Virus record (IMG/VR): IMGVR_UViG_3300025012_000029
Location: 128,001-192,000 of that record
Reading direction: 5' to 3' (one strand)
Origin: a virus
Lineage: Duplodnaviria; Caudoviricetes
DNA: 64,000 nt
Position numbers and translations under genes: made by a program. Below the pieces are notes generated by a model. The model was not told the DNA's origin and ran no database searches. It saw only the letters and a list, made by a program, of their open reading frames with translations. Positions 27,159-63,731 of the stretch are shown here, piece by piece (position 1 is the first letter of the stretch; every line of letters begins with the position of its first letter).

Positions 27159-28829
27159 TTATTCAACACTGTCAAAGTATTCTTTAAAGGTATTATAATT
27201 TGACTCTCCTATAACATCTTTAAATTCATGGAAAACATCACGTTCTTCGCGCCTTCGACGAAGCATTTTGTCTGGATCGGAACTTGTGCTTAATCCGTCT
27301 GGATTATAATAATAAAGTCCCAATATTTTATTAACCTTCTTAAAAAGAGAACCAGCTCTAACAGCTCGCAACCATAACTCCCAATCTCCAGCGTGTTTGA
27401 GTTTTTCATCCCATAGTCCCGCTTTATCGTGAATAGATTTACGATATAGAGGTAGGGGTCCGGGAAGACATTTGATCATATTTTCTCTGGAAAAATCCAT
27501 TCGAGAGTGTTCATACAATCTTCCTTTTGAAGAATTTTGTTCAACTGTTTCATTAGGTTTTGTCGTTTGAAGACAATCCCCATATACCAAATCGATTTCT
27601 GGATTCAACATTAAGTGTTTTGCTAGTGTTTCTAAATGATCGTTCGCCATCCTATCATCAGCCAACACACATGCTATAAATTCCCCGGACGCAAGTTTCG
27701 TTGCTTCATTAAATGCTTCCATTGGAGTTATTTGGGTGTTTTTTCTAATATATTTAATATTGTCTGTATGCACTTGTATATATTTCGAAATTATTGAGAC
27801 TTCATCATCTGGAGAATTGGCATCGATAATGATTAATTCAGAATCGTCTGATATTGTTTGTGCTACAAACGAATCCATAAAACCTTTAATATGTTCCTTT
27901 GCTTTATAGATTGTCGTAATAACTGAAACTTTGGGAAGTTTTACTGAATTAAATTTTTCCACTTCTTTATCTTTGATTACTTTCTCAAACAAATCAATTG
28001 TTTTTTCTTTTCTTCCGGCAATATATTCTAATAACTCTTCGCCCTTTAATTTGAAAAAATCTTCTGATGCGCATCCTAAAGCTTTGTTTGTTATTAATTT
28101 ACAACCTAGAATTCTAGCTTCAATCGCGACCCTACAAAATGTTTCAATCCATGTAGGAAAAAACACCAACGTTTCTGTTTTGGCAAGTTCATCAAAAAAT
28201 CTATCTTGATCACAAAATGGAATTAATTCATAATTTATTTTATTCTTTTTACAATATTGTATTGCTTCGGGCATGCCTTTATTTTTATTATTGGATTGGA
28301 TAATACCAACTTTTCTATTCTTCTTTTTTCCAATATTGTTGCGAAGGACTTCAACTGCTTCATCAGACCATATATTACATCCAATATTGACAATATTTTT
28401 GAGAAGAAGATTTTTCTCCATTATTTCAGCATGCATCTTGCTTTGACAAAAAACTGCTTTCGCTGATTTAAAAAATTGTTTATTCTGTATTTGATCTTCA
28501 GGAACAACAAGATTTGGAAATAATGCTGGGTTATTTGATTTGAATGCCTTCCAATCATTTTCAACTATCAAATAATTTATTTTTTCATTAATCAGTGTTT
28601 GTTTACTATCTTCTGGTAATAGCATAAAATTTGATATTATCCAAAAACAATCTTTATTGTCTTTTAGCAAGTTAGAAGTACATTCAACACTTTTAAGTTT
28701 TTCTAATTCGAATCCACGTTTCTGCAGAGACTTTATTTGTTCTTCTGCGCACAACTCGGCACCGCCACAGATTTCATTAGCAAAATAGTCAGCAACATAA
28801 ACAACTTTTTTAGTATTAATCATACGCAA
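27159..28829 (-). CDS. Two-domain glycosyltransferase (GT-B-like + GT2)
   Basis: ETFCRVAIEA (GT4 E-x7-E type); C-terminal VSVITTIY, IDANS, LADD, GDWELWLR. Confidence 0.85.
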   Translation of the reverse strand: MRMINTKKVVYVADYFANEICGGAELCAEEQIKSLQKRGFELEKLKSVECTSNLLKDNKDCFWIISNFMLLPEDSKQTLINEKINYLIVENDWKAFKSNNPALFPNLVVPEDQIQNKQFFKSAKAVFCQSKMHAEIMEKNLLLKNIVNIGCNIWSDEAVEVLRNNIGKKKNRKVGIIQSNNKNKGMPEAIQYCKKNKINYELIPFCDQDRFFDELAKTETLVFFPTWIETFCRVAIEARILGCKLITNKALGCASEDFFKLKGEELLEYIAGRKEKTIDLFEKVIKDKEVEKFNSVKLPKVSVITTIYKAKEHIKGFMDSFVAQTISDDSELIIIDANSPDDEVSIISKYIQVHTDNIKYIRKNTQITPMEAFNEATKLASGEFIACVLADDRMANDHLETLAKHLMLNPEIDLVYGDCLQTTKPNETVEQNSSKGRLYEHSRMDFSRENMIKCLPGPLPLYRKSIHDKAGLWDEKLKHAGDWELWLRAVRAGSLFKKVNKILGLYYYNPDGLSTSSDPDKMLRRRREERDVFHEFKDVIGESNYNTFKEYFDSVE

Positions 28830-49491: not shown

Positions 49492-50850
49492 GTGAACTAC
49501 CCACACACGCCAACGGCAATGGGATGGGCTTCGGGTTTCACAGAGTGTGCTTTGTTGCCAAAGTCTGATTTCCTCTCCACCCTTGTAATGGGCAGTCCAT
49601 GCCCATATATTTTCAATCCTTCTTTAAGTATGTTCCTTGCAGCATTTAAATCACGGTCTAATACGTGTCCATTCTTGCAAGTCCATTTTCTTATAGAAAG
49701 ATTTAAGTCTTGATTTATATAGCCACACTCACAGCAGGTTTTTGACGATGGATACCAGCGATTGATTTTAACGATTTGTTTATCATTCCAATCTGCTTTG
49801 TATTCAAGCAATCTTACAAACGTTCCCCAACTGGCATCTGATATGTGTTTTGCAAGTTTGTGGTTTTTAACCATTCCCTTTACATTCAAATCTTCTAATG
49901 CAATTATATCATAATCTGATACTAATTGACGGGATACTTTGTGTAAATTATCCATTCGTGAGTTGGTTATCTTCTCGTGGATTAAGGCTGTTTTTCGTCT
50001 TTGTTTTTCAAACGAAAAGCTTCCTTTTGTTTTACGAGAAAGATGTTTTTGAGCTTCCGCTAACTTTCTTTCATATTGTTTTGTGTATTTGTTATTCTTA
50101 AATTTAATTCCATCAGAAGTAATAGCAAAGTCTTTTAATCCCAAGTCTATTCCACAAACCGCACCTGTCTTTTCTTTTGGCTGATATTGTTCTTCTGATA
50201 GAATTGATACAAAGTATTTTCCTGTTGGCGTTTTGCTTAAAGTACATTTCCCAATTTCACCTTTTACTTCTCGGTGAACATTAACCTTAATTCCTTCTTT
50301 AAACTTCGGGGCATAAAACCTATCTGCTTCAAGTTTTGCGAATTGAGGAACAGTAAATGTATTTTTCTTTTTCCTTGACTTAAATCGTGGAAACTTAGCA
50401 TTACCACGAAAGAAGTTTACATAGGCAGTATCCAAACATCTTAAAGCAAATTGTAATGATTGGCTGTTAACTTCTTTAAGCCAAACAGTTTCCTCTTTTT
50501 TCTTTAATTCAGTTAGTGTTGCTGCCTGTGCATAGTAATTATCTGATTTTTTGTCTGCTTGATACTGCTCTTTTCGCTCATTTAGAAAATGATTATACAC
50601 AAATCGGGTACACCCAAAGTGCTTTTCCAACAACATCTTTTGCTCTTGTGTTGGTTGTAATTCGAATTTATATGTCCGAAATATTGTTTTCATCTATTAG
50701 TAAATAGTCTATTTTTTTACAAAAATACATCTTTTTCGCATAACCGCTACATTTTTTGTACAAATATTCTTTCACAAGGTTAATTTACTATATTTGTGCC
50801 TTACATCCCATCCACGCTAAAGCAATAAATGGGTTTTACGGCACGTTTTA
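49492..50850 (-). mobile_element. IS200/IS605-family element, tnpB only (IS1341-like)
   Basis: Related subterminal hairpins at 49500-49530 and 50807-50844; right end ...TTCAC; no tnpA; left boundary approximate. Confidence 0.85.
49497..50693 (-). CDS. tnpB: RNA-guided endonuclease TnpB
   Basis: HTH start (FGCTRFVYN), RuvC GIDLG / LEDL / DRDLNAA, Zn ribbon. Confidence 0.95.
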   Translation of the reverse strand: MKTIFRTYKFELQPTQEQKMLLEKHFGCTRFVYNHFLNERKEQYQADKKSDNYYAQAATLTELKKKEETVWLKEVNSQSLQFALRCLDTAYVNFFRGNAKFPRFKSRKKKNTFTVPQFAKLEADRFYAPKFKEGIKVNVHREVKGEIGKCTLSKTPTGKYFVSILSEEQYQPKEKTGAVCGIDLGLKDFAITSDGIKFKNNKYTKQYERKLAEAQKHLSRKTKGSFSFEKQRRKTALIHEKITNSRMDNLHKVSRQLVSDYDIIALEDLNVKGMVKNHKLAKHISDASWGTFVRLLEYKADWNDKQIVKINRWYPSSKTCCECGYINQDLNLSIRKWTCKNGHVLDRDLNAARNILKEGLKIYGHGLPITRVERKSDFGNKAHSVKPEAHPIAVGVCG

Positions 50851-52191: not shown

Positions 52192-52419
52192 CTATGTGTC
52201 TTTTTTAATTGAATTTAATTGTTTAGAATATTCCTCTAATCGTTTATTTAATTCGTTTACTCTCAATTTGATATTTTCTGCTTTTAAAGCATAAATTTCA
52301 CTTTTGAGTTCTTTGATTCTATTCATTAAAGACTGAATATCTTTCCATCTCCTTGCCGAAGAATATATGTTTATGTCATATTCTATGTGATTAACAGAAC
52401 CACTTATGCTCATTTTCAT
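52192..52419 (-). CDS. Hypothetical coiled-coil protein
   Basis: IYSSARRWKDI motif. Confidence 0.65.
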   Translation of the reverse strand: MKMSISGSVNHIEYDINIYSSARRWKDIQSLMNRIKELKSEIYALKAENIKLRVNELNKRLEEYSKQLNSIKKDT

Positions 52420-53222
52420 TACATATTTTCACCAAGAATATTAAAGAATTCAGGACGATTTTTTGACCAAGTAATATTGGGACGATTCGCATTCTTTTTA
52501 AAAGTCATTGGGTCGGTAACGTAAGCATTCATATAAGATTCTAGTAATGTTATTGTTTTGTCGTATGTTCTAAATGAATTCCAAAATGCCCTTCCGAATG
52601 TTGTTCCATACGAAACATGATCGTCGTCTGTAGCAGAAATAAAAATGTATTCAGATAGCCGTTCCTCATCTTCAATGGTTCCCCAATAACAGAAATCAGT
52701 AAATACAATACCAATACGTGGATTTATTGTTGATAATATTTCTATAAACATTTCCTTAGTGAGATTTTCTACTTTATTGAGAGCAAAAGCTGACTTTCTT
52801 ATATTTCCAACTTTATTTCCATGTCCAGTCATATAAATAAGCAAAGAATCATTTTCCGTTACATGTGTTTTAAGCCATCCAAACATAATCAAAATTGATT
52901 TTTCATTGGTTGAGTCTGTGATTGGGAATACCGCCGGGTTCCCACCCTCCGAGTCAAAAATGAATATATCCCTTCTATTATATCCTTGTTCTATGAGCAC
53001 CTGGTATGCTAGTGAAAGATTATTCCTATGTCTATCTTCAGAATTGCCAGCAATCAAAACAGCATAATGATGCTGTGCTTTATCTTCGTTAGCGCCGAGA
53101 AGCTTTAATCTATTTTCCAAACGAATTGGAGATGGGGGAATGTAAACTGAATAAGTCATGCGGAATGTTTCCGCACAACCTACTGTTAGCAGTAACAAAA
53201 TATAACTGAATAGTTGCCACAC
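52419..53222 (-). CDS. Caspase-hemoglobinase fold cysteine peptidase (C13-like), probable lipoprotein
   Basis: YMTGHG and TDFCY dyad; GTG start at 53222 gives an LTVGC lipobox. Confidence 0.75.
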   Translation of the reverse strand: MWQLFSYILLLLTVGCAETFRMTYSVYIPPSPIRLENRLKLLGANEDKAQHHYAVLIAGNSEDRHRNNLSLAYQVLIEQGYNRRDIFIFDSEGGNPAVFPITDSTNEKSILIMFGWLKTHVTENDSLLIYMTGHGNKVGNIRKSAFALNKVENLTKEMFIEILSTINPRIGIVFTDFCYWGTIEDEERLSEYIFISATDDDHVSYGTTFGRAFWNSFRTYDKTITLLESYMNAYVTDPMTFKKNANRPNITWSKNRPEFFNILGENM

Positions 53223-53239
53223 ATAATAAGTAGTGTTAA

Positions 53240-53307
53240 CGGAAAGTGTGAGAATCGAACTCACTCAGGAAATTTAGCAAATTTCCGTCTCTCCAAGTAG
53301 ACTTTCC
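53240..53307 (-). tRNA. Atypical short tRNA-Ser(GCT)-like (68 nt)
   Basis: 7-bp acceptor, perfect T arm, loop TTGCTAA; weak D arm and 3-nt variable region. Confidence 0.55.
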
Positions 53308-53311
53308 AAAA

Positions 53312-53385
53312 TGTTTCGGGGTGGATTCGAACCACCATCGCCCACGCCTTCAACGTGGCGCTCTACCAATTGGAGCTACCGAAAC
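53312..53385 (-). tRNA. tRNA-Phe(GAA)
   Basis: Cloverleaf; CCACG-TTGAAGG-CGTGG. Confidence 0.92.
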
Positions 53386-53465
53386 AAAAAGCCCCATTAC
53401 AAGGCTTATGTTACGACATAAATGTCTTATTTATTTAAGAATTTTCTAATTGTTAGGTTTCGAAA

Positions 53466-53699
53466 TTAGAAACTAGCGTCGTAGGTTTGCTCTGTCGAGA
53501 CAGAACCATCAGCATTGCGCACGCGAAGTGTGGTATTGATACCAAAGTCAGAAGCAGCAAGACGAGCTCGCCTTCGCCCCTCTTGTTCCGCTTCACGCCG
53601 GGTCTCCGTTCGCTTAACGCAAGTACCCTTTCCAGTGACTACCTTCCAGCCACCAATATTTCTATCCGAGCGAACTTCATATAGCCTATGATTTTTCAT
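53466..53699 (-). CDS. DUF2188-like small protein
   Basis: GGWKV...T..EA...R..A...LRVRNADG pattern. Confidence 0.6.
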   Translation of the reverse strand: MKNHRLYEVRSDRNIGGWKVVTGKGTCVKRTETRREAEQEGRRRARLAASDFGINTTLRVRNADGSVSTEQTYDASF

Positions 53700-53801
53700 T
53701 ATTAATTATTACCTCTTTGTTTTTAAATCTCAATATTTCATTGAGTATCTTTACTTTACAGCATTTTGTTTGCTGTGTCAATAGGAAAATTTCTTTTCCT
53801 A

Positions 53802-53874
53802 CGTCTCTGGCAGGGTTCGAACCTGCTACCTCATTTTTAGGGGAAATGCGTTCTTCCTTATGAACTACAGAGAC
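53802..53874 (-). tRNA. tRNA-Arg(CCT)
   Basis: CATTT-CCCCTAA-AAATG (C33). Confidence 0.85.
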
Positions 53875-53892
53875 ATTTAGCATAAAATCTCA

Positions 53893-53963
53893 AGCCTATA
53901 TAGGGAATTAAACCCTAGTTTCAACTTTACCAAAGTTGTGTATTATCACTATACTATACAGGC
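53893..53963 (-). tRNA. tRNA-Thr(GGT)
   Basis: CAACT-TTGGTAA-AGTTG. Confidence 0.85.
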
Positions 53964-54611
53964 AAAATACTTGTCAAACACTTTTTCAAATAATTTCATT
54001 GTTTCTTTTAATTCATTTTTGTGATCTTTGAGATAATCTTTTAACCCAGAATTCAGTCCAGTGCTTAAATAAGCATGTATTTCGTCATCCAAAACACTTT
54101 CATCATACATATTGTCATAAAGAAATTTTCTTATCGCTTTGTTTAATTCTTTAGGAATTGATTTGAGAAGTGTTTTCATTTCTTCTTTATATTCTGGTAT
54201 CATATTCCAAAAAGCATGTGATAATTCATGCTTATAAGTGCTTTCATCGCCTTTTTTGATTCCTATTAAATAAAATTCTTTTCCATATCTTTTTCTCATT
54301 GTATTGAATAATTTTTTCATGAAAAGATCATATTTGTTAATATCTGGAATTCCTTTTTTAAAAACATCATGAATTACACATCCAGAAATATTAAATCCGC
54401 CCCAGTCGTTAGGATATGTAAAACAACCTCTACCAAATGATTTAGAATACCATTCCATATAATCTATAAGAGAAAAAACATTATTTCTGAAAGATGGATT
54501 AGGTGATTCATAATATTCTTGAAATCTCAAGAAGTGCATTGCTAGATCATATTCGCTATCAAACGATAAAACAAATATTTTTGGATACACTTCATTGAAT
54601 TCAAATTTCAT
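53949..54611 (-). CDS. Hypothetical protein with HExxH motif
   Basis: KHELSHAFW; 220 aa. Confidence 0.65.
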   Translation of the reverse strand: MKFEFNEVYPKIFVLSFDSEYDLAMHFLRFQEYYESPNPSFRNNVFSLIDYMEWYSKSFGRGCFTYPNDWGGFNISGCVIHDVFKKGIPDINKYDLFMKKLFNTMRKRYGKEFYLIGIKKGDESTYKHELSHAFWNMIPEYKEEMKTLLKSIPKELNKAIRKFLYDNMYDESVLDDEIHAYLSTGLNSGLKDYLKDHKNELKETMKLFEKVFDKYFACIV

Positions 54612-54612
54612 T

Positions 54613-54684
54613 TGCTGACAAGAAGATTCGCACTTCTACCTATTACTTACGGGGCAATAATACTTCTAATTATACTATGTCAGC
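54613..54684 (-). tRNA. tRNA-Thr(CGT)
   Basis: ATTGC-CCCGTAA-GTAAT; T loop TGCGAAT. Confidence 0.75.
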
Positions 54685-54688
54685 TCTA

Positions 54689-55063
54689 TTAGAAAAGTAA
54701 ACGAACATTATGATGTCTATCAGAAATCTTAGATAATTCTTTCTTTATCACTTCTTCCCATATGTTGAATTTGTTTGCCAATCCAGAACCTAATTGGGAA
54801 ATTAGCCAAAGCGTATTAGGTGATTTCCTTATTTCAAATTCAAGTTTAGATAATTCTTTTTCAAATACTTTTCTGTATTCTTCTGGTTTATAAAAACTAT
54901 CATCGTTGTTATTTGGATATTTCTTTGTGATAAATCCATATGTATTTGGTTCACTTCGAAACATCGCTGCGCCAGCAAAACCTTTTCTTAACCGATTGTC
55001 TCCATATACAAAAATTGTATTAGGGTTTTTTCGAAGGTATTCTTTTGTTATTAACATAACCAC
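54689..55063 (-). CDS. Hypothetical phage protein (A1S_2505-like/macro-like fold suspected)
   Basis: IFVYGDN..G.AGAA and LGSGLA motifs. Confidence 0.55.
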   Translation of the reverse strand: MVMLITKEYLRKNPNTIFVYGDNRLRKGFAGAAMFRSEPNTYGFITKKYPNNNDDSFYKPEEYRKVFEKELSKLEFEIRKSPNTLWLISQLGSGLANKFNIWEEVIKKELSKISDRHHNVRLLF

Positions 55064-55069
55064 TCTCCA

Positions 55070-55145
55070 TGAACACGAAAGGATTCGAACCTTTGCTGTC
55101 CGACTGATTTCTCTCCCGGATGCCGTCCCGCTTGGCTACGTGTCC
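55070..55145 (-). ncRNA. tRNA-like RNA with 12-nt anticodon loop
   Basis: Normal acceptor, D and T arms; TCCGG-GAGAGAAATCAG-TCGGA has no readable anticodon. Confidence 0.6.
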
Positions 55146-55155
55146 AATATTTAAA

Positions 55156-55746
55156 TCAGGTCCATAAATATTTTCTTAATTTTATGAGCTTATCAAGATT
55201 ATCGTCATCTTTTCTCTCAAACTCTTCTTTCTTTTTAGAAAATTCTTCCCATTTGGGATTTTCGAAAAAATGAGAAGTATCCCATATTCTACATCCTGGA
55301 TGTTCTGGAGATTCTTTGAATTTTATCGATAAATCCATGCCATCACAAATATGATGTATTTCATCATACTCTTTTTCTCTGTCTTCTTTCCACCAATGAT
55401 AAAGTTTAAATATTTCCTCATAAACTCTAGTTGCTTCCTCATTGTGTTTCTTTTTATTTTCTGTTGAGTGTTCTTCTTCGCTTAATTCATCAAAACAACC
55501 AATTTGGCGCTTAAGCATACCTAAACCATCTTCTTTTTCAACAAATTCTACAAGACAATTAAAACAAGCATGGAACATTCTCCAATCTTGATCCATCCAT
55601 CCATATCGATATTCTTTGGTTCGAAGGTCTAACATATGATATCGGTTGATGGTGTGACATCTAATCCAATACCAAATATCATGAAAGGGACGCTTAATAT
55701 CCCTTAATGCGTCTAATACAGCATGCTTGATTTTTTGTTTAACCAT
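55156..55746 (-). CDS. Hypothetical protein
   Basis: Start MVKQK with GGAG SD; the longer ORF overlaps tRNA-Val. Confidence 0.7.
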   Translation of the reverse strand: MVKQKIKHAVLDALRDIKRPFHDIWYWIRCHTINRYHMLDLRTKEYRYGWMDQDWRMFHACFNCLVEFVEKEDGLGMLKRQIGCFDELSEEEHSTENKKKHNEEATRVYEEIFKLYHWWKEDREKEYDEIHHICDGMDLSIKFKESPEHPGCRIWDTSHFFENPKWEEFSKKKEEFERKDDDNLDKLIKLRKYLWT

Positions 55747-55793
55747 TAAATTTCTCCATTTTATTATCGTTATTATATTTTCCTCATAAATTA

Positions 55794-55864
55794 TACTGGG
55801 TAGGGGATTTGCACTCCTGCGAAAGGTATGTAACACCTTCATGCTACTTTTACATCAACCCAGT
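55794..55864 (-). tRNA. tRNA-Val(TAC)
   Basis: AAGGT-GTTACAT-ACCTT; T loop TGCAAAT. Confidence 0.75.
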
Positions 55865-56100
55865 CTATTTTTCTTTTTGTTTCTTCCAGAAAATGTGATT
55901 GTTTGACTATGACAATTAGGACACAACAATCGTAGATTTTCCAATCTATTGTCTGTTCGTATTCCATTTGTGTGGTCTAATTGTAAAGTAATTGATTTTC
56001 CATTCCACATCGGTTCCATTTTACATATGTTAACATTTTTCTTCTAAAATATTTTCATCTAATAATCGTTTTCTCAGATTTGTTGACCAAATATACTCAC
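55855..56100 (-). pseudogene. Frameshifted HNH endonuclease between tRNA genes
   Basis: EEKC then +1 shift to NICKMEPMWNGKSITLQLDHTNG..DNRLENLRLLCPNCHSQT; start boundary approximate. Confidence 0.75.
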
Positions 56101-56113
56101 TATAATTGTGGTG

Positions 56114-56184
56114 TTGCCCCACTAAGATTCGAACTTAGAACAAAAATTTCAGAGACTTTTATTTTGCCATTAAACTATGGGGCA
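56114..56184 (-). tRNA. tRNA-Gln(CTG)
   Basis: AAAGT-CTCTGAA-ATTTT; U1-A72. Confidence 0.9.
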
Positions 56185-56185
56185 G

Positions 56186-56274
56186 CGGAGTGTAGAAGAA
56201 TCGAACTTCTGTGAGCTTATGATCTCAACCTCTGCTTTCGAAACAGGTGCTTTTCCAAACTCAGCCAACACTCC
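56186..56274 (-). tRNA. tRNA-Ser(CGA)
   Basis: Loop TTCGAAA, long variable arm, G73. Confidence 0.85.
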
Positions 56275-56477
56275 TAATCAATAACGTTATGTTTATATTT
56301 TTTAAGTTCTTTTCTAATAATTTCTTTTAGAACTGGTGTTGGTTCAGATTTTCCTTCTCGCCATCTTTTAATTGATGGACGTGAACAATCGAACATCTCT
56401 GAGACATCCTCATCGTAAACTTCACATTCTTTCATTAGTAATGTTATTTCTTCAGCCCAAGATATTTCTTTGTTCAT
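56274..56477 (-). CDS. Small HTH (Cro/XRE-like) protein
   Basis: VSEMFDCSRPSIKRWREGKSEP; start MNKEIS. Confidence 0.7.
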   Translation of the reverse strand: MNKEISWAEEITLLMKECEVYDEDVSEMFDCSRPSIKRWREGKSEPTPVLKEIIRKELKKYKHNVID

Positions 56478-56478
56478 A

Positions 56479-56566
56479 CGGAAGATAGAGGATTCGAACC
56501 CCTGCACGACTGATTACGTGACACCAGTTTTCAAGACTGGAACCTTTCCAACTCGGTCAATCTTCC
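56479..56566 (-). tRNA. tRNA-Ser(TGA)
   Basis: CCAGT-CTTGAAA-ACTGG, long variable arm. Confidence 0.92.
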
Positions 56567-56832
56567 ACAGCATTAACACTATACTCTTCGGACTTTTTTA
56601 ATATCAGCCTAAACCGATCATGATCTTCTAACCTTAGCATAAACGAATCAAAATGTCCATATTTACATTTGTATCCAAAAACATATTTTAAAGCAATCCA
56701 AATTCTTTTATACCAACTATTCCATTGATTCAAAAATACAGAAGCGTAGATATATCCATCTTCATCATCAATGTTAAATTTCAATGTATGTTCATCTGAA
56801 TAACATTGGCATTCAAAATGTTCTGTATCCAT
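56557..56832 (-). CDS. Hypothetical protein
   Basis: 91 aa, GGAG SD. Confidence 0.65.
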   Translation of the reverse strand: MDTEHFECQCYSDEHTLKFNIDDEDGYIYASVFLNQWNSWYKRIWIALKYVFGYKCKYGHFDSFMLRLEDHDRFRLILKKSEEYSVNAVED

Positions 56833-56854
56833 TATATCTCCAATCTAATTAATA

Positions 56855-57091
56855 TTATTTTCTTACCAAAAGAAGCATTGTCGTGGAACCAATTATGAAC
56901 CCAAAAGCAGAAAAAAAAGTAAGACGAAGCCTTTCCATAAAGTCTTTTGTATCGATAAACCACATATACAAAATCATATTAACGAAAGGGAGAATGAAAC
57001 CAGTGATCGCTTGAGTTATAATCCATCCATGAGCGACAGAATAAGAATATAAAGAGATCCAAAAATCTGCGATCGCGCTTAATATCGTCAC
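56855..57091 (-). CDS. Hypothetical membrane protein
   Basis: Two hydrophobic segments. Confidence 0.55.
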   Translation of the reverse strand: MTILSAIADFWISLYSYSVAHGWIITQAITGFILPFVNMILYMWFIDTKDFMERLRLTFFSAFGFIIGSTTMLLLVRK

Positions 57092-57178
57092 AAACAGGTA
57101 ACGTGTAACGTCTGAATGGGTTCTCCCATATTTTGTTTAATAGATTTTTCTCCACCAGGGTCATCCATAAATTATGTT

Positions 57179-57397
57179 TTAATCCTCAACAACTTTAGCA
57201 TATACAAAAATTAATTGATATATGTTTCCTAATCTAAATAGCTTAATATCAATATAGTTGCTGACACAAACATTATTCTCCTCCAGAAATTTAGAGAATT
57301 CATATTCAATTGTTCCTATAGTTGAAGCAAGTAATATTTTCGTTCTTAACACTCTTGCTTTTAGCTCAATATTATCGAAAACGGAGCAAGAGTTCAT
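57179..57397 (-). CDS. Hypothetical protein
   Basis: 72 aa coupled ORF. Confidence 0.55.
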   Translation of the reverse strand: MNSCSVFDNIELKARVLRTKILLASTIGTIEYEFSKFLEENNVCVSNYIDIKLFRLGNIYQLIFVYAKVVED

Positions 57398-57657
57398 TGT
57401 TCTTTGAACTCCACAATAGAAAGGAAATGTTTAATTGTTTTTTCAACAAACTCTTTACCCATACATTCTGTATCGCAGATTATTTTACTTCCTTTTTTAT
57501 AGAAAGCAATTTGTCCAAAACCAAGATGTTCAACACCCCAATTAAGAATAAATCCGCCATCATTTCCAGTGTGTTTATCCCACACTTCCAGTTCAACATA
57601 TTTGAATTGTGGATTCTTTTTAGCTTCAGCAATTTCTTCTTTTGTTCCAAAAACCAT
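57394..57657 (-). CDS. Hypothetical protein
   Basis: 87 aa coupled ORF. Confidence 0.6.
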   Translation of the reverse strand: MVFGTKEEIAEAKKNPQFKYVELEVWDKHTGNDGGFILNWGVEHLGFGQIAFYKKGSKIICDTECMGKEFVEKTIKHFLSIVEFKEQ

Positions 57658-57918
57658 TTACTTCCTCATATCTTTCTCTTCAACATCTTCCCAATAATGT
57701 TTACCATCTTTATCCATCGACCAAACATCCATCGTTTCTTCTTCATTAAAAAAGACTACGTTTTCTGAATCTACAGCTCCTTGTTCAATTTTTCGAACAA
57801 TTTCTCTTTCAAGAGAACGATACATCTTATGAAATAATTTTTTATCTTTTTTTTCAGATGCGTGACAAAGAGATCCAACGTTTCCGAATATTTTTGTTTT
57901 ACGGATTGATCTGCTCAT
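57658..57918 (-). CDS. Hypothetical protein
   Basis: 86 aa (MSRS.RKT...WSMDKDGK). Confidence 0.65.
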   Translation of the reverse strand: MSRSIRKTKIFGNVGSLCHASEKKDKKLFHKMYRSLEREIVRKIEQGAVDSENVVFFNEEETMDVWSMDKDGKHYWEDVEEKDMRK

Positions 57919-57948
57919 AAAGTAATTATGTTCCCATTGACAGTAACA

Positions 57949-58092
57949 TTAAGAAAACTGTTTAATGAATTTAATTTTAAGTTTTCTAATTAAATCTTTG
58001 AGTTTCTTATTTTCTTTGTCAAGTTTACGCTTGTCAAGTTGTAACTTGATAACTTCATTTTTAAGACGCTGTATTTCTATTCTATAATCCAT
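57949..58092 (-). CDS. Small coiled-coil protein
   Basis: Start MDYRIE just 3' of tRNA-Ala. Confidence 0.4.
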   Translation of the reverse strand: MDYRIEIQRLKNEVIKLQLDKRKLDKENKKLKDLIRKLKIKFIKQFS

Positions 58093-58100
58093 ATATTGAT

Positions 58101-58174
58101 TGGAATGTATCGGAATCGAACCGATTCTTAAAGAATGCAAATCTTTCGTGCAAACCCATTAACACTTACACCCC
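58101..58174 (-). tRNA. tRNA-Ala(TGC)
   Basis: AAAGA-TTTGCAT-TCTTT; G3-U70. Confidence 0.9.
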
Positions 58175-58392
58175 AATATGATCGATTTTCGTTCAGTCAA
58201 TCCATCTCTCAACTTGTAATCGCGCGTAGATAGTTTATTATCATTTGGAAGTCATAGTTTCCTCGTTCCATTTGTAAACAACATTGTATCATTGTATTAC
58301 ACACAAATCAATCATCGCACGCACGCGAACATTTGCTAAGAAGGTTTTTTATGATAGCTCACGCCGCACTATCACCCTCTCGTTACGTGATC

Positions 58393-58935
58393 TTAATCGG
58401 ATAATTCTCCATGCCAATATAAGCATGTTGCCATATAGTCTCTCCATGAATCTGGAGCACCTTTATTCCAAAATATAGTTTGGAAGATGTTCTTTGGTTT
58501 ACTTGGAATAGATAACAAAGTCATTCCAGATTTATGAAGAGGTTTATCTTGTTTTCGTCTATTACAATCTACACAACAAACGACAACATTTTTCCATTCC
58601 GTTATCCCACCTAATGCCCTTGGAACAATGTGATCTAGTGTAAACTCTTCTGTCGTACAATGAGTTCCACAATATTGGCATTTTCCTTTATCTCTTGCAT
58701 AAACATTATCTCTTGAGAATTTTACTCTTCTCACTTTTTTGAAAACGTTTTTGACAAATCTGATAATGGAAGGAACTTTGAATGCTTGATGAGCTGAGCG
58801 AACCCATAAGTCAGCATATTCTTCTACAATTTCAACCTTATCCATCATATAAAGACAAAAAGCACGTTGCCAGCTAATAATTCCTAGTGGTTGATATGAA
58901 GTATCGAGCACTAGCGTTTTTGCGTTCACATCCAT
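58393..58935 (-). CDS. HNH endonuclease (McrA-like)
   Basis: CQYCG..TLDHIVPR..GG..W.NVV.CC..CN..K; start MDVNAK after AAGGA. Confidence 0.9.
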   Translation of the reverse strand: MDVNAKTLVLDTSYQPLGIISWQRAFCLYMMDKVEIVEEYADLWVRSAHQAFKVPSIIRFVKNVFKKVRRVKFSRDNVYARDKGKCQYCGTHCTTEEFTLDHIVPRALGGITEWKNVVVCCVDCNRRKQDKPLHKSGMTLLSIPSKPKNIFQTIFWNKGAPDSWRDYMATCLYWHGELSD

Positions 58936-58954
58936 AATTCTTTTCCTTTTTAAG

Positions 58955-59032
58955 TGGAGCGCAGGGGAGTCGAACCCCTTTCCGAAAAACTCCATTTGTT
59001 GGATTATCTTTCGTCGAAACCATTAGCGCCCC
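58955..59032 (-). ncRNA. tmRNA tRNA-like domain without mRNA-like domain (78 nt)
   Basis: 5' GGGGCGCTAATGGTTTCGAC, G3-U70, no D stem, short capped P2, T arm AGGGG-TTCGACT-CCCCT, A73. Confidence 0.75.
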
Positions 59033-59040
59033 ATATTTTT

Positions 59041-59069
59041 ACTATAAATAACTATTCATCATTTGTCAA
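59041..59069 (-). promoter_or_regulatory. Sigma70-type promoter for the tmRNA-like RNA/HNH
   Basis: TTGACA-17 nt-TATAGT. Confidence 0.8.
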
Positions 59070-59104
59070 ATAGATTTGACATTCGCAATTATGAATGATA
59101 AGAA

Positions 59105-59422
59105 TTAATCATGATTTTTAAGCATTCTATCAACTTCTTCCTTATCTCTTGTTTGATAAAAGATTAATCTTATTCTTTCTAAAATCTTTTTTCTATTCTT
59201 GAGTCTTGTTTTTGCTGGGAATGTTGACGTTAAAATTCCAAACAACGCATGATGCGAGGTTATTTTCTCAACATCTATCAACTCAAGAATTTTATCAATG
59301 ATATCAAACCTATTCCTGTTCATTAAATTATGCATCATATCAAACATATAATCTAATTGTAAATCATCTGATAAATTTGTATTTTCAATTATATTTCTTG
59401 CGATCAATTCAGAATTATTCAT
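59105..59422 (-). CDS. Hypothetical protein
   Basis: 105 aa. Confidence 0.6.
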   Translation of the reverse strand: MNNSELIARNIIENTNLSDDLQLDYMFDMMHNLMNRNRFDIIDKILELIDVEKITSHHALFGILTSTFPAKTRLKNRKKILERIRLIFYQTRDKEEVDRMLKNHD

Positions 59423-59440
59423 ATTTATTCACACATTAAG

Positions 59441-59514
59441 AGGATAGGGAGGGACTTGCGCCCACTAAAATTCGTTTTGCAGACGAATGCCTCGACTACT
59501 TCAGCTTCCTATCC
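59441..59514 (-). tRNA. tRNA-Cys(GCA)
   Basis: TTCGT-CTGCAAA-ACGAA; U73. Confidence 0.85.
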
Positions 59515-59519
59515 ACAAA

Positions 59520-59729
59520 TCATTTAATTGCTTTCTTTTCACATAAAGATAACATCACTAACGCAATTATGTGCTTTGCCTCAGATAAACATTCGTCAGC
59601 GGGTACATTGGAAGACAAAATGAATTGTTTTGTAAGATAACAATTTACCTTCTTTTCTAATTCATTATCTCCGTCCATTTGTTCCCAAGTTACTTTACCT
59701 TTAACAACTCTACTTATTTCTTTTTTCAT
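59520..59729 (-). CDS. Hypothetical protein
   Basis: 69 aa. Confidence 0.5.
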   Translation of the reverse strand: MKKEISRVVKGKVTWEQMDGDNELEKKVNCYLTKQFILSSNVPADECLSEAKHIIALVMLSLCEKKAIK

Positions 59730-59732
59730 AAC

Positions 59733-59809
59733 ATTGTGGTGACGAGTCGAACGCCTTGAAATAACTTTTGGAGGGTTACCCGAATCCGATTCGGTTTAAT
59801 CTACCACAA
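59733..59809 (-). tRNA. Atypical tRNA-Trp(CCA)-like
   Basis: Acceptor TTGTGGT/ACCACAA, loop CTCCAAA, T loop TTCGACT; D region replaced by palindrome CCGAATCGGATTCGG. Confidence 0.45.
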
Positions 59810-59836
59810 TATAATTTAGATGAATTCATCTAAAAG

Positions 59837-59910
59837 CACCCCTAGGAGGATTTAAACCCACCAACTCAAAGTTCGTAGCTTTGTGTGATATTCAGTTTCA
59901 CTATAGGGGT
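59837..59910 (-). tRNA. tRNA-Arg(ACG)
   Basis: CAAAG-CTACGAA-CTTTG. Confidence 0.88.
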
Positions 59911-59915
59911 ATAAT

Positions 59916-60088
59916 TCTAATAGAGCAGATTTCCACTGCGTTGAGGATAGGCGTGATATGAGTAACGCCTCGTTTTACATCTTGTCCGCCAGCTTACCAT
60001 ACCCATCTGGCTGGTCTTGTCCGCACCGTATCACTACACCGAACAAGTTCTCCTTCAACTGATTACCTCCTAAGGAGGTTCTATTAGA
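59916..60088 (-). ncRNA. Unassigned structured RNA (173 nt)
   Basis: 9-bp closing stem TCTAATAGA/TCTATTAGA and several internal stems; GC-rich relative to surroundings. Confidence 0.6.
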
Positions 60089-60160
60089 TGCGAATACCAA
60101 GAATCGAACTTGGAAAAAAAGTTTATCAGACTTTTATGATAACCATTTCATCATATTCGC
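60089..60160 (-). tRNA. tRNA-Ile(GAT)
   Basis: AAAGT-CTGATAA-ACTTT. Confidence 0.9.
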
Positions 60161-60323
60161 CCATTGGGGAGTCAGGGATTCGAACCCCGCTACCGCAAAC
60201 CAGTATCGCTATTTGTTAACGCGGACTTGTTTTACAGACAAGTGCGATTAACTCACCGTTTAGTATACATTCCACTTCGGTATACTAGCGAACTGAACTT
60301 CTTGTCAATCCTCTCTACAATGG
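60161..60323 (-). ncRNA. Expanded tRNA-Tyr(GTA)-like RNA (163 nt)
   Basis: CTTGT-CTGTAAA-ACAAG and CGGGG-TTCGAAT-CCCTG intact; D arm and variable arm greatly enlarged. Confidence 0.65.
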
Positions 60324-60345
60324 AGGGACGCACAGATAAAGTGGA

Positions 60346-60416
60346 TCGCGATTACCAGAATCGAACTGGTAAATTAATTTTATGAGAATTATGTGATTCC
60401 ATTTCACCAAATCGCG
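60346..60416 (-). tRNA. tRNA-CAT (Met or Ile2)
   Basis: TAATT-CTCATAA-AATTA; C1-G72 paired. Confidence 0.85.
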
Positions 60417-60677
60417 TTATTTTCTCTTTTTTCTCATTTCTATTTCATGAAGTTCAATTGAAATATCTATACATTTTTTCTCAATTACTTCATATTCTAC
60501 AATCTCACAATCCTTGTATACAAGTGGATTTCCACTTTTGACAATAAAAACAAGATGTAATTTCAATTGTCCCTCTCCGTTCCATGTCTTTCCTTTTTCA
60601 GAAAATCTTGGCTTACTTCCGCCTTTCGAAAATAAACCTTCTTGATTTCTTATTTTATAGATCATATTAATTATCAA
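60417..60677 (-). CDS. Hypothetical protein
   Basis: 86 aa (YKIRNQEGLFSKGG..P..GK.W). Confidence 0.65.
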   Translation of the reverse strand: MIINMIYKIRNQEGLFSKGGSKPRFSEKGKTWNGEGQLKLHLVFIVKSGNPLVYKDCEIVEYEVIEKKCIDISIELHEIEMRKKRK

Positions 60678-60685
60678 AGATAAAT

Positions 60686-60758
60686 TGCGGGTACAAGAGT
60701 CGAACTTGTTATCTCGAAGGTTATGAGCCTTGAATGATTATCCGTTTCACCCACCCGC
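60686..60758 (-). tRNA. tRNA-CAT (Met or Ile2)
   Basis: AAGG-CTCATAA-CCTT. Confidence 0.85.
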
Positions 60759-61051
60759 TATATATTGTTGTTTTTTCTTCTTTTCTGTTCGTCATACATT
60801 TCTATCCACTCAAATAAAGGAATGAAAACTTCTGTATGTTTATTATCATCCCACATAATCCAACCCTGAAGTTCTTTAACCAATTCATTAATTCTAAATC
60901 TTTCTCGACCAGTCAGATCTGATAAATGTTCAGAGCCGTTAATATCTTCCCAAACTCTATATTCGATATATCCACACCATCCAGCGCAAGTTTCACGTTC
61001 TGAGAACTGCGAGATTATATTTTTGAGTTCATTAAAAGCTTCTTTATTCAT
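60758..61051 (-). CDS. Hypothetical protein
   Basis: Start MNKEAF; the longer ORF overlaps tRNA-Leu. Confidence 0.6.
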   Translation of the reverse strand: MNKEAFNELKNIISQFSERETCAGWCGYIEYRVWEDINGSEHLSDLTGRERFRINELVKELQGWIMWDDNKHTEVFIPLFEWIEMYDEQKRRKNNNI

Positions 61052-61064
61052 AATAATATTACCA

Positions 61065-61138
61065 TGCTCACAGAGAGATTCGAACTCCCAACGCACACGG
61101 TCTAAACGTGTTGACTCTACCAATTGGTCTATGTGAGC
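61065..61138 (-). tRNA. tRNA-Leu(TAG), short variable loop
   Basis: ACACG-TTTAGAC-CGTGT; 5-nt variable loop. Confidence 0.85.
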
Positions 61139-61374
61139 TTTTTTTTCATTCTTTCTCTAACTTCTTCATGTGTATAATACCACTTCATTTTACAACAAGC
61201 AAGTCCCAAAGTAATGTGACAGCAAGTTCTGAAATCTAAAAGATCATCGCTTTTTCTAGCATAAAGACTATTCAAGAAATAAAATTTAATCGCTTCATAA
61301 GGAACGAGAAAATAATATCTTCTTCTCCATAGTTTAACATACCAAGAACAATATTGGAATCGTTTTTCTTCCAT
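61129..61374 (-). CDS. Hypothetical protein
   Basis: 81 aa. Confidence 0.55.
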   Translation of the reverse strand: MEEKRFQYCSWYVKLWRRRYYFLVPYEAIKFYFLNSLYARKSDDLLDFRTCCHITLGLACCKMKWYYTHEEVRERMKKKLT

Positions 61375-61385
61375 AAATTAATTAG

Positions 61386-61458
61386 CACTCCCGATAGGAC
61401 TCAAACCCATACCAAAGCGTTAGAAGCGCCTTATGCTATTCTTTTACACTACGGGAGC
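61386..61458 (-). tRNA. tRNA-Arg(TCT)
   Basis: AGGCG-CTTCTAA-CGCTT. Confidence 0.88.
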
Positions 61459-61463
61459 AAAAG

Positions 61464-61537
61464 GTTGTATGATGAGAATTGCACTCACTAACAACAGCTT
61501 CACAGGCTGTCCGCTAACTATTTTGCGTTCATACAAC
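61464..61537 (-). tRNA. tRNA-His(GTG)
   Basis: ACAGC-CTGTGAA-GCTGT; G-1:C73. Confidence 0.88.
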
Positions 61538-61639
61538 ATAGCAATAATAAATAATATTTACTTTTCATTTAACTCATCACAACAAAAACAACAAGAAAAA
61601 AAGTTGTTATTACAATTGGAATGTATTTTATATCCATAG

Positions 61640-61723
61640 TGCAGGTAGAGGGACTCGAACCCCCACGCCCTCACGGGCGGAAGCTCTTAAGGCTTCTGCG
61701 GCTGCCAATTACGCCATACCTGC
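61640..61723 (-). tRNA. tRNA-Leu(TAA)
   Basis: GAAGC-CTTAAGA-GCTTC; long variable arm. Confidence 0.93.
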
Positions 61724-61788
61724 ATTTTATTTAACTTACAATTCTATATTACCAGTTATTATTGATTCTGTCAATAAGTAATTTTTAA

Positions 61789-61861
61789 TCAGGGTGGTGA
61801 GAGTCGCACTCACAATCTCATCACTCCGAATGACGCAGGTTTCTATCAACCCTTCACCCTG
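61789..61861 (-). tRNA. tRNA-Pro(CGG)
   Basis: CGTCA-TTCGGAG-TGATG; G72 A73. Confidence 0.82.
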
Positions 61862-61936
61862 TTAAATCGGATAACGTGCTAGCTTACACCACACAACTTA
61901 AGAGTCTGACCGTATCCCAGCGACTCCTTTATCCTA

Positions 61937-62010
61937 TACCTTTGATCAGATTCGAACTGATAACAATTTGTTTTTGAGACAAATGACTCTACCAATTGGT
62001 CTACAAAGGC
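61937..62010 (-). tRNA. tRNA-Leu(CAA), short variable loop
   Basis: TTTGT-CTCAAAA-ACAAA; 5-nt variable loop. Confidence 0.85.
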
Positions 62011-62013
62011 TCA

Positions 62014-62087
62014 CGTACCCTAAAAGAATCGAACTTTTCTTGTACAGTTTAACAGACTGTCGCAATCTCCAGACATGCCAAGGGTAC
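62014..62087 (-). tRNA. tRNA-Asn(GTT)
   Basis: ACAGT-CTGTTAA-ACTGT; G73. Confidence 0.88.
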
Positions 62088-62100
62088 ATAATTTATAATA

Positions 62101-62172
62101 AGCTTCTTGCCGGTACTGCCCCGGCTTATCCAGTTTACAAGACTGGCATATCACTTTTTATATTTAAGAAGC
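62101..62172 (-). tRNA. tRNA-Thr(TGT)
   Basis: CCAGT-CTTGTAA-ACTGG; T loop GGCAGTA. Confidence 0.8.
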
Positions 62173-62184
62173 AAAGTGTTGGTT

Positions 62185-62631
62185 TTACCCTATAGCCAAC
62201 AAGGAATTAATCATTTTACAAATTGAATTTACAGTTTTTGTCCCGAAAAGAAGTTTAACCGACTTAATGTCTTTTTTTTCTAAAATCAAATGGATATTGT
62301 CTGCCCCTACTGGGTTCATACTCCATATAATGACAGGAACATCTTTCCACTCTATCTTTTTAGCTGCATCAGATCCGTTTTTATAAACAGAATATGTTGT
62401 TTTTCCATAGCTTGGATGTCCTGAGCAAACATAATGATCATAATCTAAATCATGATCCAACACAATCATATCAGGAGGATTATTTTTGTTTTCATTCATC
62501 CAAATTTCGAAATCATTCACTTGAGTTTTCCAGATAATGTTAACTTTTTCAGTCAAACCGAAGTGAGATAATTTCTTTTTCAGAAAAATTATTCTCTCTT
62601 CAGAATCTTCAAGAATTAAAATATTTATCAT
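62185..62631 (-). CDS. Receiver-like domain protein (cyclic-phosphate-processing REC type)
   Basis: ILILEDS, LDHDL, G.DAA, WSMNPVG motifs. Confidence 0.75.
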   Translation of the reverse strand: MINILILEDSEERIIFLKKKLSHFGLTEKVNIIWKTQVNDFEIWMNENKNNPPDMIVLDHDLDYDHYVCSGHPSYGKTTYSVYKNGSDAAKKIEWKDVPVIIWSMNPVGADNIHLILEKKDIKSVKLLFGTKTVNSICKMINSLLAIG

Positions 62632-62634
62632 AAG

Positions 62635-62706
62635 CGCCTCATAGGAGTTTCGATCTCCTTATTTTATCGTGACAGGATAATGTGATAGCCAGTTCACCAA
62701 TGAGGC
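62635..62706 (-). tRNA. tRNA-Asp(GTC)
   Basis: TTATC-CTGTCAC-GATAA; G73. Confidence 0.88.
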
Positions 62707-62948
62707 AAAAGACACGACAAACAGTTAAATCTTTACTTTAACCACGCTAGGATAATTTCGTATTGTCAATACAGCCGTTTCCTTCATATACCCATCAGAA
62801 GGTTTACAATAATATTATTGATTTGCTCTCGTGTCGTAACAACAAATTAAGTATAAATATAAAATACTATCATAGTCACCTTTATGTCAATCCATTTTTC
62901 GAATTCCTTTTCAAGTTTTGAATACTTTGTCCTTTTACATTTATAAAA

Positions 62949-63022
62949 TCTAGGTAGCAAGATTCGAACTTGCGGTCTTTTGTTCCCAAAACAAACGTGA
63001 TACCAAGCTTCACCATACCTAG
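62949..63022 (-). tRNA. tRNA-Pro(TGG)
   Basis: TTTGT-TTTGGGA-ACAAA. Confidence 0.9.
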
Positions 63023-63065
63023 TCAAATAAAATATTCGAATCCGAAATCTAAACACAATTAAAAA

Positions 63066-63140
63066 TGGAACCGGAGAGAATTGAACTCTCGTTTCGACGG
63101 ATTAAAAGTCCGCTGCAATGCCAACGTTTGCTACGATTCC
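63066..63140 (-). tRNA. tRNA-Lys(TTT)
   Basis: GCGGA-CTTTTAA-TCCGT. Confidence 0.9.
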
Positions 63141-63196
63141 GTAATTTGCCAAATGGACAGTTTTGAATGGCAAGCCAATTAGCTATCCATCGGCAA

Positions 63197-63269
63197 TTGC
63201 CCCACAAAGACTCGAACTTTGACCAAAAGCTTCAAAGGCTTTCGTGCTTGCCAATTACACCATAGGGCA
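63197..63269 (-). tRNA. tRNA-Gln(TTG)
   Basis: AAAGC-CTTTGAA-GCTTT; U1-A72. Confidence 0.92.
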
Positions 63270-63322
63270 ATTGAAGCTCTTTAATTTATCATCCGCCAAA
63301 GAGCTTACGACATAAAGCGGGA

Positions 63323-63395
63323 TGCCCTTACTGGGAATCGAACCCGAGATTGAGAGTGTGAAAGACTCTTAGCCTAGCCATTAGCTGATAAGGGC
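63323..63395 (-). tRNA. tRNA-Glu(TTC)
   Basis: AGAGT-CTTTCAC-ACTCT. Confidence 0.9.
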
Positions 63396-63420
63396 ATAAT
63401 TTTTGAACGCGTCAAAACAT

Positions 63421-63493
63421 AGCAATGCAAGAGACTCGAACTCTTACCTTTAGGTTGGAAGCCTAAAATGCTACCATTAAACACTAGCATTGC
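63421..63493 (-). tRNA. tRNA-Gly(TCC)
   Basis: TTAGG-CTTCCAA-CCTAA; U73. Confidence 0.92.
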
Positions 63494-63506
63494 ATTTGGC
63501 AATTAT

Positions 63507-63630
63507 TCAATTGTCACAGACACAAACCCGCTGTTTTACCAAGGCCATTTTCCAAGCCTCAACCCTTTCGGCACAAGACGATAAACCGTCTCCGTGTCAG
63601 CTAAGTTGTCATTCCCCTAATCACAATTGA
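63507..63630 (-). ncRNA. Unassigned structured RNA (124 nt)
   Basis: Closing stem TCAATTGT/ACAATTGA, GACAC/GTGTC and two internal hairpins. Confidence 0.45.
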
Positions 63631-63636
63631 TTAAGG

Positions 63637-63660
63637 TTGAAAAGGCTTGAGCCTTTTCAA
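63637..63660. terminator. Perfect 10-bp hairpin (terminator or processing site)
   Basis: TTGAAAAGGC-TTGA-GCCTTTTCAA. Confidence 0.5.
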
Positions 63661-63731
63661 TCCGCCTGCATGGAATCGCACCATGCCGGGAGCTTTATAA
63701 GAACTCCTGAACCAACTAGGCCCACAGGCGG
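63661..63731 (-). tRNA. tRNA-Ile(TAT), compact D arm
   Basis: Acceptor CCGCCTG/CAGGCGG, GAGTT-CTTATAA-AGCTC, T arm CATGG-TGCGATT-CCATG. Confidence 0.7.

Follow-up and report, generated by a model that had tools for sequence, protein, structure and literature searches.

A tmRNA reduced to its tRNA-like domain in the tRNA array of a large groundwater phage belongs to a covarying, overwhelmingly viral RNA family

The genome of a groundwater phage (201,144 bp, 34% GC) carries a 78-nt gene for a tmRNA that consists of the tRNA-like domain (TLD) only, here called the mini-tmRNA. This RNA joins a known, under-annotated kind, the phage TLD-only tmRNA. The first-pass annotation of the window (the whole 64,000-nucleotide stretch analysed, whose positions are used below) had regarded it as an undescribed system, a claim that is not supported, since the kind is described in mycobacteriophage DS6A and has many further viral members. 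The tag-less mini-tmRNA is probably, with appreciable room for other readings, an alanine-charged competitor that uses the host SmpB and blocks or short-circuits trans-translation. This reading is based on the fold, the alanine identity elements, the conserved SmpB contacts, the lack of a tag template, the lack of smpB in the phage genome and a covarying, mostly phage-borne family to which the DS6A RNA belongs. The features of the locus are as follows (basis in brackets):

58955..59032, minus strand: mini-tmRNA gene (tRNA-like domain only), 78 nt, G1 at 59032, discriminator A at 58955 (RF00023 score, fold)
59026..59032, minus strand: 5' strand of the acceptor stem, GGGGCGC, paired with 58956-58962, GCGCUCC (sequence, fold)
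59014..59025, minus strand: stemless D-loop UAAUGGUUUCGA, 12 nt unpaired, fitting the tmRNA consensus uGGaUUCGA (Rfam alignment)
58983..59013, minus strand: P2 stub, with an 8-bp helix (59006-59013/58983-58990), AA bulge and hairpin (fold, family covariation)
58991-59003, minus strand: 4-bp hairpin UCCA-ACAAA-UGGA, which caps the P2 stub in place of the pseudoknots and tag template
58963..58982, minus strand: linker GAA (tmRNA 'GGAC' region) and T arm AGGGG-UUCGACU-CCCCU (alignment, fold)
59041..59069, minus strand: sigma-70-type promoter TTGACA-17-TATAGT, near-consensus, 11/12 match (predicted from sequence)
58393..58935, minus strand: free-standing HNH endonuclease gene (PF14279, 5.3e-15; phrog_16726, 9.1e-44)
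58100-58175: ordinary tRNA-Ala(UGC) with its own G3:U70 (ARAGORN)

In the Infernal scan of the whole window the mini-tmRNA matched the tmRNA model RF00023 with 54.5 bits (gathering score 47, E 1.2e-18), and the whole-genome scan again returned 54.5 bits; a permissive local scan of 301 bases gave 33.7 bits (E 3.4e-12), and the tRNA-clan models, which scored below tmRNA at this place, were dropped there. The comparison with tmRNA and tRNA models that the first-pass annotation had proposed therefore placed the RNA above the tmRNA threshold. In both Infernal scans the match spans model positions 1-374, about 306 of which are missing and replaced by 13 nt; the missing positions contain the pseudoknots and the tag template, only the ends of the model being matched. 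ARAGORN, run for tRNA and tmRNA, called no tmRNA in the window or in the whole genome.

The minimum free energy (MFE) fold of the mini-tmRNA has -30.7 kcal/mol (z = -3.3; 1 of 200 shuffles was equally good) and comprises: an acceptor pairing 1-7/71-77, in which G3:U75 is G3:U70 in tRNA numbering; P2 (20-27/43-50) with a two-A bulge and a 4-bp hairpin UCCA/UGGA with loop ACAAA; and a T arm (54-58/66-70) with loop UUCGACU, the linker GAA and the discriminator A. The acceptor pairs G1:C, G2:C, G3:U and G4:C are the alanine identity set, and the tmRNA signature UGGUUUCGA is carried in the 12-nt unpaired D-loop. All the elements of a tRNA-like domain are thus present (7-bp acceptor stem with G3:U70, A73, stemless D-loop GGxUUCGAC, GGA(C) linker and T arm); of these, the first-pass annotation had read G3:U70, A73, the stemless D-loop and the T arm from a 78-nt RNA starting with GGGGC. 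The tRNA cloverleaf (RF00005) is not formed, there being no D stem and a loop of 5 nt, not 7, at the position of the anticodon arm. The layout fits the TLD-only (DS6A) type: standard order, P2 closed by a short hairpin, 60-90 nt and no tag frame. In the Rfam consensus alignment, U16, G18 and A52 of the mini-tmRNA are the equivalents of E. coli tmRNA U17, G19 and A334, which pack against SmpB, the G19C change abolishing binding (PMC8363625).

The mRNA-like domain (resume codon, tag frame, stop codon) is absent: only 31 nt lie between the two TLD halves, all of them paired or within a 5-nt loop in the fold, and the sequence is too short for the pseudoknots PK1-PK4. The capped P2 lacking a tag reading frame and pseudoknots was therefore correctly recognised at the outset. 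The missing parts are not encoded elsewhere in the phage, as no full-length tmRNA and no second or permuted tmRNA piece was found in the genome (RF00023, RF04321), and the genome encodes no SmpB. The stretch 58300-59600 is identical and gap-free in Logan contigs that were assembled independently for two groundwater samples, both taken in one study, giving no sign that the collapse of a full-length tmRNA in assembly, a possibility raised in the first-pass annotation, lies behind the short form. The mini-tmRNA stretch was absent from every RNA run searched.

The promoter noted upstream by the first-pass annotation is present and in register with the gene, but its quality carries little weight. 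TTGACA-17-TATAGT is the sole 11/12 sigma-70 match within 57800-60200; matches of at least 11/12 number 18 in the whole genome, against 13 ± 2.7 in Markov shuffles, so that they are not rare in this AT-rich genome and the match alone is weak evidence. Judged from the sequence, the evidence for a promoter lies in its position relative to G1: the -10 hexamer ends 8 nt before G1, a placement with a chance of about 3e-4 (arithmetic from the genome-wide background), and the expected transcription start would accordingly coincide with the mature 5' end or lie no more than about 2 nt from it. A nested palindrome spans 59054-59096, with perfect 8-nt arms TGTCAAAT/ATTTGACA within 10-nt arms; one arm includes the -35 hexamer, and TTGACA can be read on either strand. 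Possible roles are those of an operator, of a divergent promoter or, for the upstream gene, of a terminator hairpin.

The mini-tmRNA lies within an array of 27 tRNA genes (ARAGORN, whole genome; window positions 53239-63731), 13 of them within 3 kb of it, and the separate, normal tRNA-Ala mentioned in the first-pass annotation is the UGC gene listed above. CCA is not encoded at the 3' end of the mini-tmRNA, where CUU comes next, nor does it directly follow the discriminator in any of the 27 ARAGORN tRNA genes of the phage; since no CCA-adding enzyme domain was found in the phage genome, the mini-tmRNA and all 27 tRNAs would need the host enzyme. The HNH gene begins 20 nt 3' of the mini-tmRNA and has its own AAGGA ribosome-binding site. 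The terminator scan found no terminator between the two, so the HNH gene is probably co-transcribed with the mini-tmRNA and shares its promoter, as far as the sequence indicates. The HNH open frame extends 20 codons upstream into the mini-tmRNA (ATG 58995), the ribosome-binding site belonging to ATG 58935. Neighbour clustering shows that the HNH gene is not a conserved partner of the mini-tmRNA family.

Several other genes of the phage were recorded. Within the tRNA array, 62185-62631 (minus strand) weakly matches a cyclic-phosphate-processing receiver domain, below the threshold (PF20274, 1.9e-4), and a Peptidase_C13-like protein (1.7e-7) is encoded at the end of the array (52419-53264, minus strand). 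A transposase of 398 aa (49497-50693, minus strand; phrog_506, 2e-134) is located inside the phage genome. PhoH families match both ends of an 864-aa PhoH-like protein (36148-38742, minus strand), whose middle (about residues 320-730) matches regions of terminase, primase and helicase-loader families and looks, from these matches, like an intein-type insertion.

Relatives of the mini-tmRNA were sought with a strict pattern of 22 specified bases (GGGG, GGxTTCGAC and GGTTCGAxTCC fixed, with 20-50 free bases between), which misses variants, for example the sequence of DS6A itself. The pattern matched at least 118 viral contigs; a sub-scan with the same pattern returned 48 contigs, 40 of them already known, bringing the total near 140 viral contigs. 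The search for other TLD-only genes that the first-pass annotation had suggested was thus productive. Among the matches listed, all but 3 of 118 viral contigs have a fold like that of the window RNA, and the 88 unique sequences are narrow in length (68 of 88 are 77-81 nt, the pattern permitting about 63-93 nt); the stub design of the window RNA recurs in 79 of 88 unique viral relatives among these matches. A short class of 63-65 nt (L007, L017, L032, L041, L050, L061) has a P2 of 6-7 bp and a 3-4-nt loop only, a design resembling laboratory TLD constructs.

The family is diverged, the closest aligned relative of the window RNA being at most 70% identical among the matches listed. Against 50,697 phage records, blastn with the 1.2-kb locus gave no match, and neither did blastn with a marine relative as query; the RNA with its promoter gave short matches to the T arm and acceptor end only, in full tmRNAs or attachment sites of actinophages. 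An exact 25-mer of the 5' half had no match in IMG/VR, and a GGGGCGC-anchored pattern yielded no close relative of the window RNA. A locus with a similar hairpin (L023) was rejected as a relative of this phage, as the two genomes have no proteins in common. In five contigs (L008, L040, L048, L093, L098) the mini-tmRNA lies between the genes for the prohead protease and the major capsid protein, an unusual site for an RNA gene. The record of L071 has a weak 113-nt RF00023 match (G029:C1:26587-26699, 31 bits) 80 nt upstream of its mini-tmRNA, which may be a second tRNA-like RNA, judging from the match.

The same search in bacteria and archaea (one genome per species, n = 185,579) found 21 pattern places, 11 of them genuine mini-tmRNAs and mostly on MAG contigs; about 4 chance matches are expected in 596 Gb at uniform composition (arithmetic). 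With near 140 viral contigs against 11 places in 185,579 species genomes, the family is overwhelmingly viral. One genuine mini-tmRNA from a MAG labelled as an archaeon (L136, NZBO01000077.1) lies on a 20.8-kb contig, which is probably a mis-binned phage contig. The resident mini-tmRNA of Cellulosimicrobium differs from the host tmRNA in both the acceptor and the T stems, indicating, from this one case, that mini-tmRNAs are not recently copied from the TLD of their host.

Selection was analysed in alignment A2 (46 sequences, window RNA included). Pairing is found in 98.3% of its cells, where shuffles reach 68%, and its covariation score of 0.73 compares with 0.13 for shuffled alignments and about 0.1 for slid partners; none of 500 shuffles reached the observed score, but since the sequences are related this count is not a probability and the slid control is the fairer one. 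Double (compensatory) changes occur in 12 of 19 pairs, and P2 covaries. The third acceptor pair is G:U in 46/46 members and never G:C. Among the matches listed, G3:U70 is found in 80 of the 88 unique sequences and, separately, A73 in 80 of 88, although the 3' acceptor strand (U70), the discriminator A73 and the linker are not part of the strict search pattern; in the other 8 the acceptor frame was called one base off, or they are chance matches. The linker bases G50, G51 and A52, likewise outside the pattern, are each either invariant or conserved to at least 90% across the family; variation is free in acceptor pairs 5-7, in P2 and in the T stem. The fixation of the charging and SmpB-contact bases while the helices vary is a signature of selection for alanylation and the SmpB-binding surface. 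From these comparisons, the structure, the alanylation and the SmpB-binding surface of the family are under selection.

A stop triplet (UAA/UGA/UAG) at the junction between P2 and the purine-rich 5' bulge occurs in 47 of 79 members, where shuffling the same letters gives 28 ± 3.4 (loci L003-L154), the triplet of the window RNA being UAA. Its reading as a release codon was rejected: 40% of the members lack it, and its place is in a helix some 8 bp away from the elbow, for which reason it is not read as a codon; it may be a structural motif of the UAA/GAN type, as its sequence suggests.

The carriers of the family lack the rest of the system. Their short match (66-88 nt) is the only strong tmRNA match in 50/50 other carrier records, above the Rfam threshold in 48 of them; no full tmRNA was found in any of the 50, and no SmpB either, 16 of these records being at least 90% complete and their sizes 36-194 kb. 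The family spans unrelated phage types and genome contexts, and among the matches listed 85 of 116 members lie more than 3 kb from any tRNA. A conserved partner protein was ruled out, as no flanking gene family is common to more than 9 of 116 loci among the matches listed. No integrase was found among the flanking genes of the 116 loci listed, which speaks against the reading of the family as attachment sites.

The closest described RNA is that of mycobacteriophage DS6A, which is listed as '(TLD only)' in tmRNA database papers (PMC4131195, PMC11915505). We located it at 28478-28560 of JN698994.1, where it scores 43.2 bits, below the Rfam threshold, and is unannotated in GenBank. It has the same stub design as the window RNA, and its central part is closely like that of a viral contig of the family (L097). 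The two RNAs are alike in being phage-borne and about 80 nt long, with G3:U70 and A73, a stemless D-loop, a T arm and no tag frame, and both have a P2 stub with a purine-rich bulge and a small capped hairpin; they differ in sequence, in score (43.2 against 54.5 bits) and in setting, DS6A being a 60-kb GC-rich actinophage, whereas the window phage has 201 kb and 34% GC and carries its mini-tmRNA with its own promoter in a 27-tRNA array. The 2025 update of the tmRNA database contains 9 'standard, no CDS' sequences among 97,179 (PMC11915505); literature text searches found no description of a broad phage mini-tmRNA family.

CDS-less tmRNAs are also found in organelles, in jakobid mitochondria (RF02544), as the first-pass annotation had noted, there with a nuclear SmpB, and as forms of about 65 bp in Mallomonadaceae plastids (PMC11915505, PMC3590771). 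Like the window RNA, they consist of the tRNA-like domain only, with no tag frame and with SmpB encoded elsewhere. They differ in being usually permuted or in two pieces in mitochondria and in replacing the only tmRNA of the cell, while the phage mini-tmRNA has the standard order and acts in a cell with a full tmRNA of its own. Engineered TLD fragments, e.g. 5' 25 and 3' 34 residues joined by UUCG, share the idea of a TLD with P2 closed by a small loop; SmpB and EF-Tu bind to them, and once in the ribosome they serve as peptide acceptors or polymerise alanine in vitro (PMC3929946). The stub of the window RNA is longer than theirs (8-bp P2, bulge, 4-bp hairpin). Phage tmRNAs of full length, such as the annotated 296-nt one of Streptomyces phage BillNye and those of the mycobacteriophage Bxz1 group, lie inside the tRNA arrays of large phages and have the same TLD core, but they retain the tag template and the pseudoknot region, both of which the window RNA lacks.

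The mini-tmRNA as a competitor of the host tmRNA would work in the following way. The transcript would receive its CCA from the host enzyme and would then be charged with alanine by the host AlaRS; the charged RNA would bind host SmpB and EF-Tu (compatibility with AlaRS and SmpB of this phage's host is assumed), competing with the host tmRNA for SmpB and for stalled non-stop ribosomes. As the RNA has neither a resume nor a stop codon, trans-translation could not be completed and SsrA tagging would be expected to fall, so that the tagging and degradation of incomplete proteins would be blocked or diverted during infection. A possible gain for an AT-rich phage with 27 tRNAs would be that phage proteins from slow or cleaved messages are spared tagging. 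Some phages need trans-translation, and the benefit of inhibiting the pathway is thus not obvious. In E. coli, tmRNA was strongly inhibited by a TLD-only RNA of the DS6A type, titration of SmpB being a possible cause (Mao et al. 2009, RNA Biol 6:355, as reported in PMC4131195 and PMC11915505); according to PMC4131195, the RNA did not have to be chargeable for this. Both functions proposed in the first-pass annotation, an SmpB decoy and the addition of alanine without a degradation tag, are reasonable, the decoy agreeing with the inhibition reported in these papers, though the RNA is of a kind already described. Inhibition without charging, as reported in PMC4131195, means that pure SmpB titration, which would not require G3:U70 and A73, fails to explain why both are strictly kept in a diverged family; their conservation suggests that the RNA acts on the ribosome and allows for a second reading.

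In this second reading, which is possible though doubtful, the mini-tmRNA is an active rescue RNA: charged with alanine and bound to host SmpB, it would enter non-stop ribosomes and accept the nascent chain, once or repeatedly, adding alanine or polyalanine, the chain would be released by host ArfA/RF2, ArfB or Pth, and the ribosomes would be recycled to the benefit of the phage either without the SsrA degron or with an alanine-tail degron. The strictly kept charging bases and the narrowly constrained stub length noted above agree with such a role. So do three precedents: template-free polyalanine made in vitro by a TLD fragment with SmpB (Shimizu & Ueda 2006, as cited in PMC3929946), the jakobid forms, and the 2-residue Ala-Ala tags of some bacteria (PMC11915505). 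Rescue would, however, need another factor for release, there being no readable stop codon in the RNA, and the phage genome holds no RF-1/ArfB-type domain protein and no peptidyl-tRNA hydrolase (Pth). Furthermore, the sole in vivo test of such an RNA reportedly gave inhibition and not rescue (PMC4131195). That the mini-tmRNA repeatedly adds untemplated alanine or polyalanine at non-stop ribosomes, a phage-run template-free tagging resembling bacterial RQC alanine tailing, is unlikely.

A role outside trans-translation is improbable. Here the RNA would be a bait for a host nuclease or defence system directed at tRNA or tmRNA, or an alanine donor for a non-ribosomal aminoacyl transferase, as its alanine identity elements and its setting in a tRNA array near the weak cyclic-phosphate-processing receiver domain match might suggest; the conserved parts of the family are however the tmRNA-specific D-loop and the GGA linker, which contact SmpB and are not generic tRNA features, and neither the tRNA neighbourhood nor a protein partner is kept across the loci listed. 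Attachment sites that consist of the 3' part of a tmRNA or tRNA gene are common in temperate phages. A non-functional remnant (decayed tmRNA or tRNA, attachment-site fragment or assembly artefact), to which partial matches of the 3'-piece type in Gordonia and Mycobacterium phages might point, is very improbable, given that the acceptor stem has both of its strands and forms as a helix, a neat cap closes the deletion, the family helices covary with no integrase beside the members, the promoter is in register and the two independent assemblies are identical.

Bacteria rely mainly on trans-translation for ribosome rescue and quality control, and the pathway has been proposed as a target for antibiotics. 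In a compact natural phage RNA competing with tmRNA, both a ready-made inhibitor of this pathway and a tool for probing it would be available. The published record has one phage example, and the covarying family described here, with well over a hundred members that nearly all come from viruses, is of the kind that escapes annotation: ARAGORN missed the window RNA, and that of DS6A stands unannotated in GenBank. The window instance adds a jumbo-phage example with its own promoter in a large tRNA array and by itself brings no new principle; the family points to a common, overlooked way in which phages handle the control of host translation.
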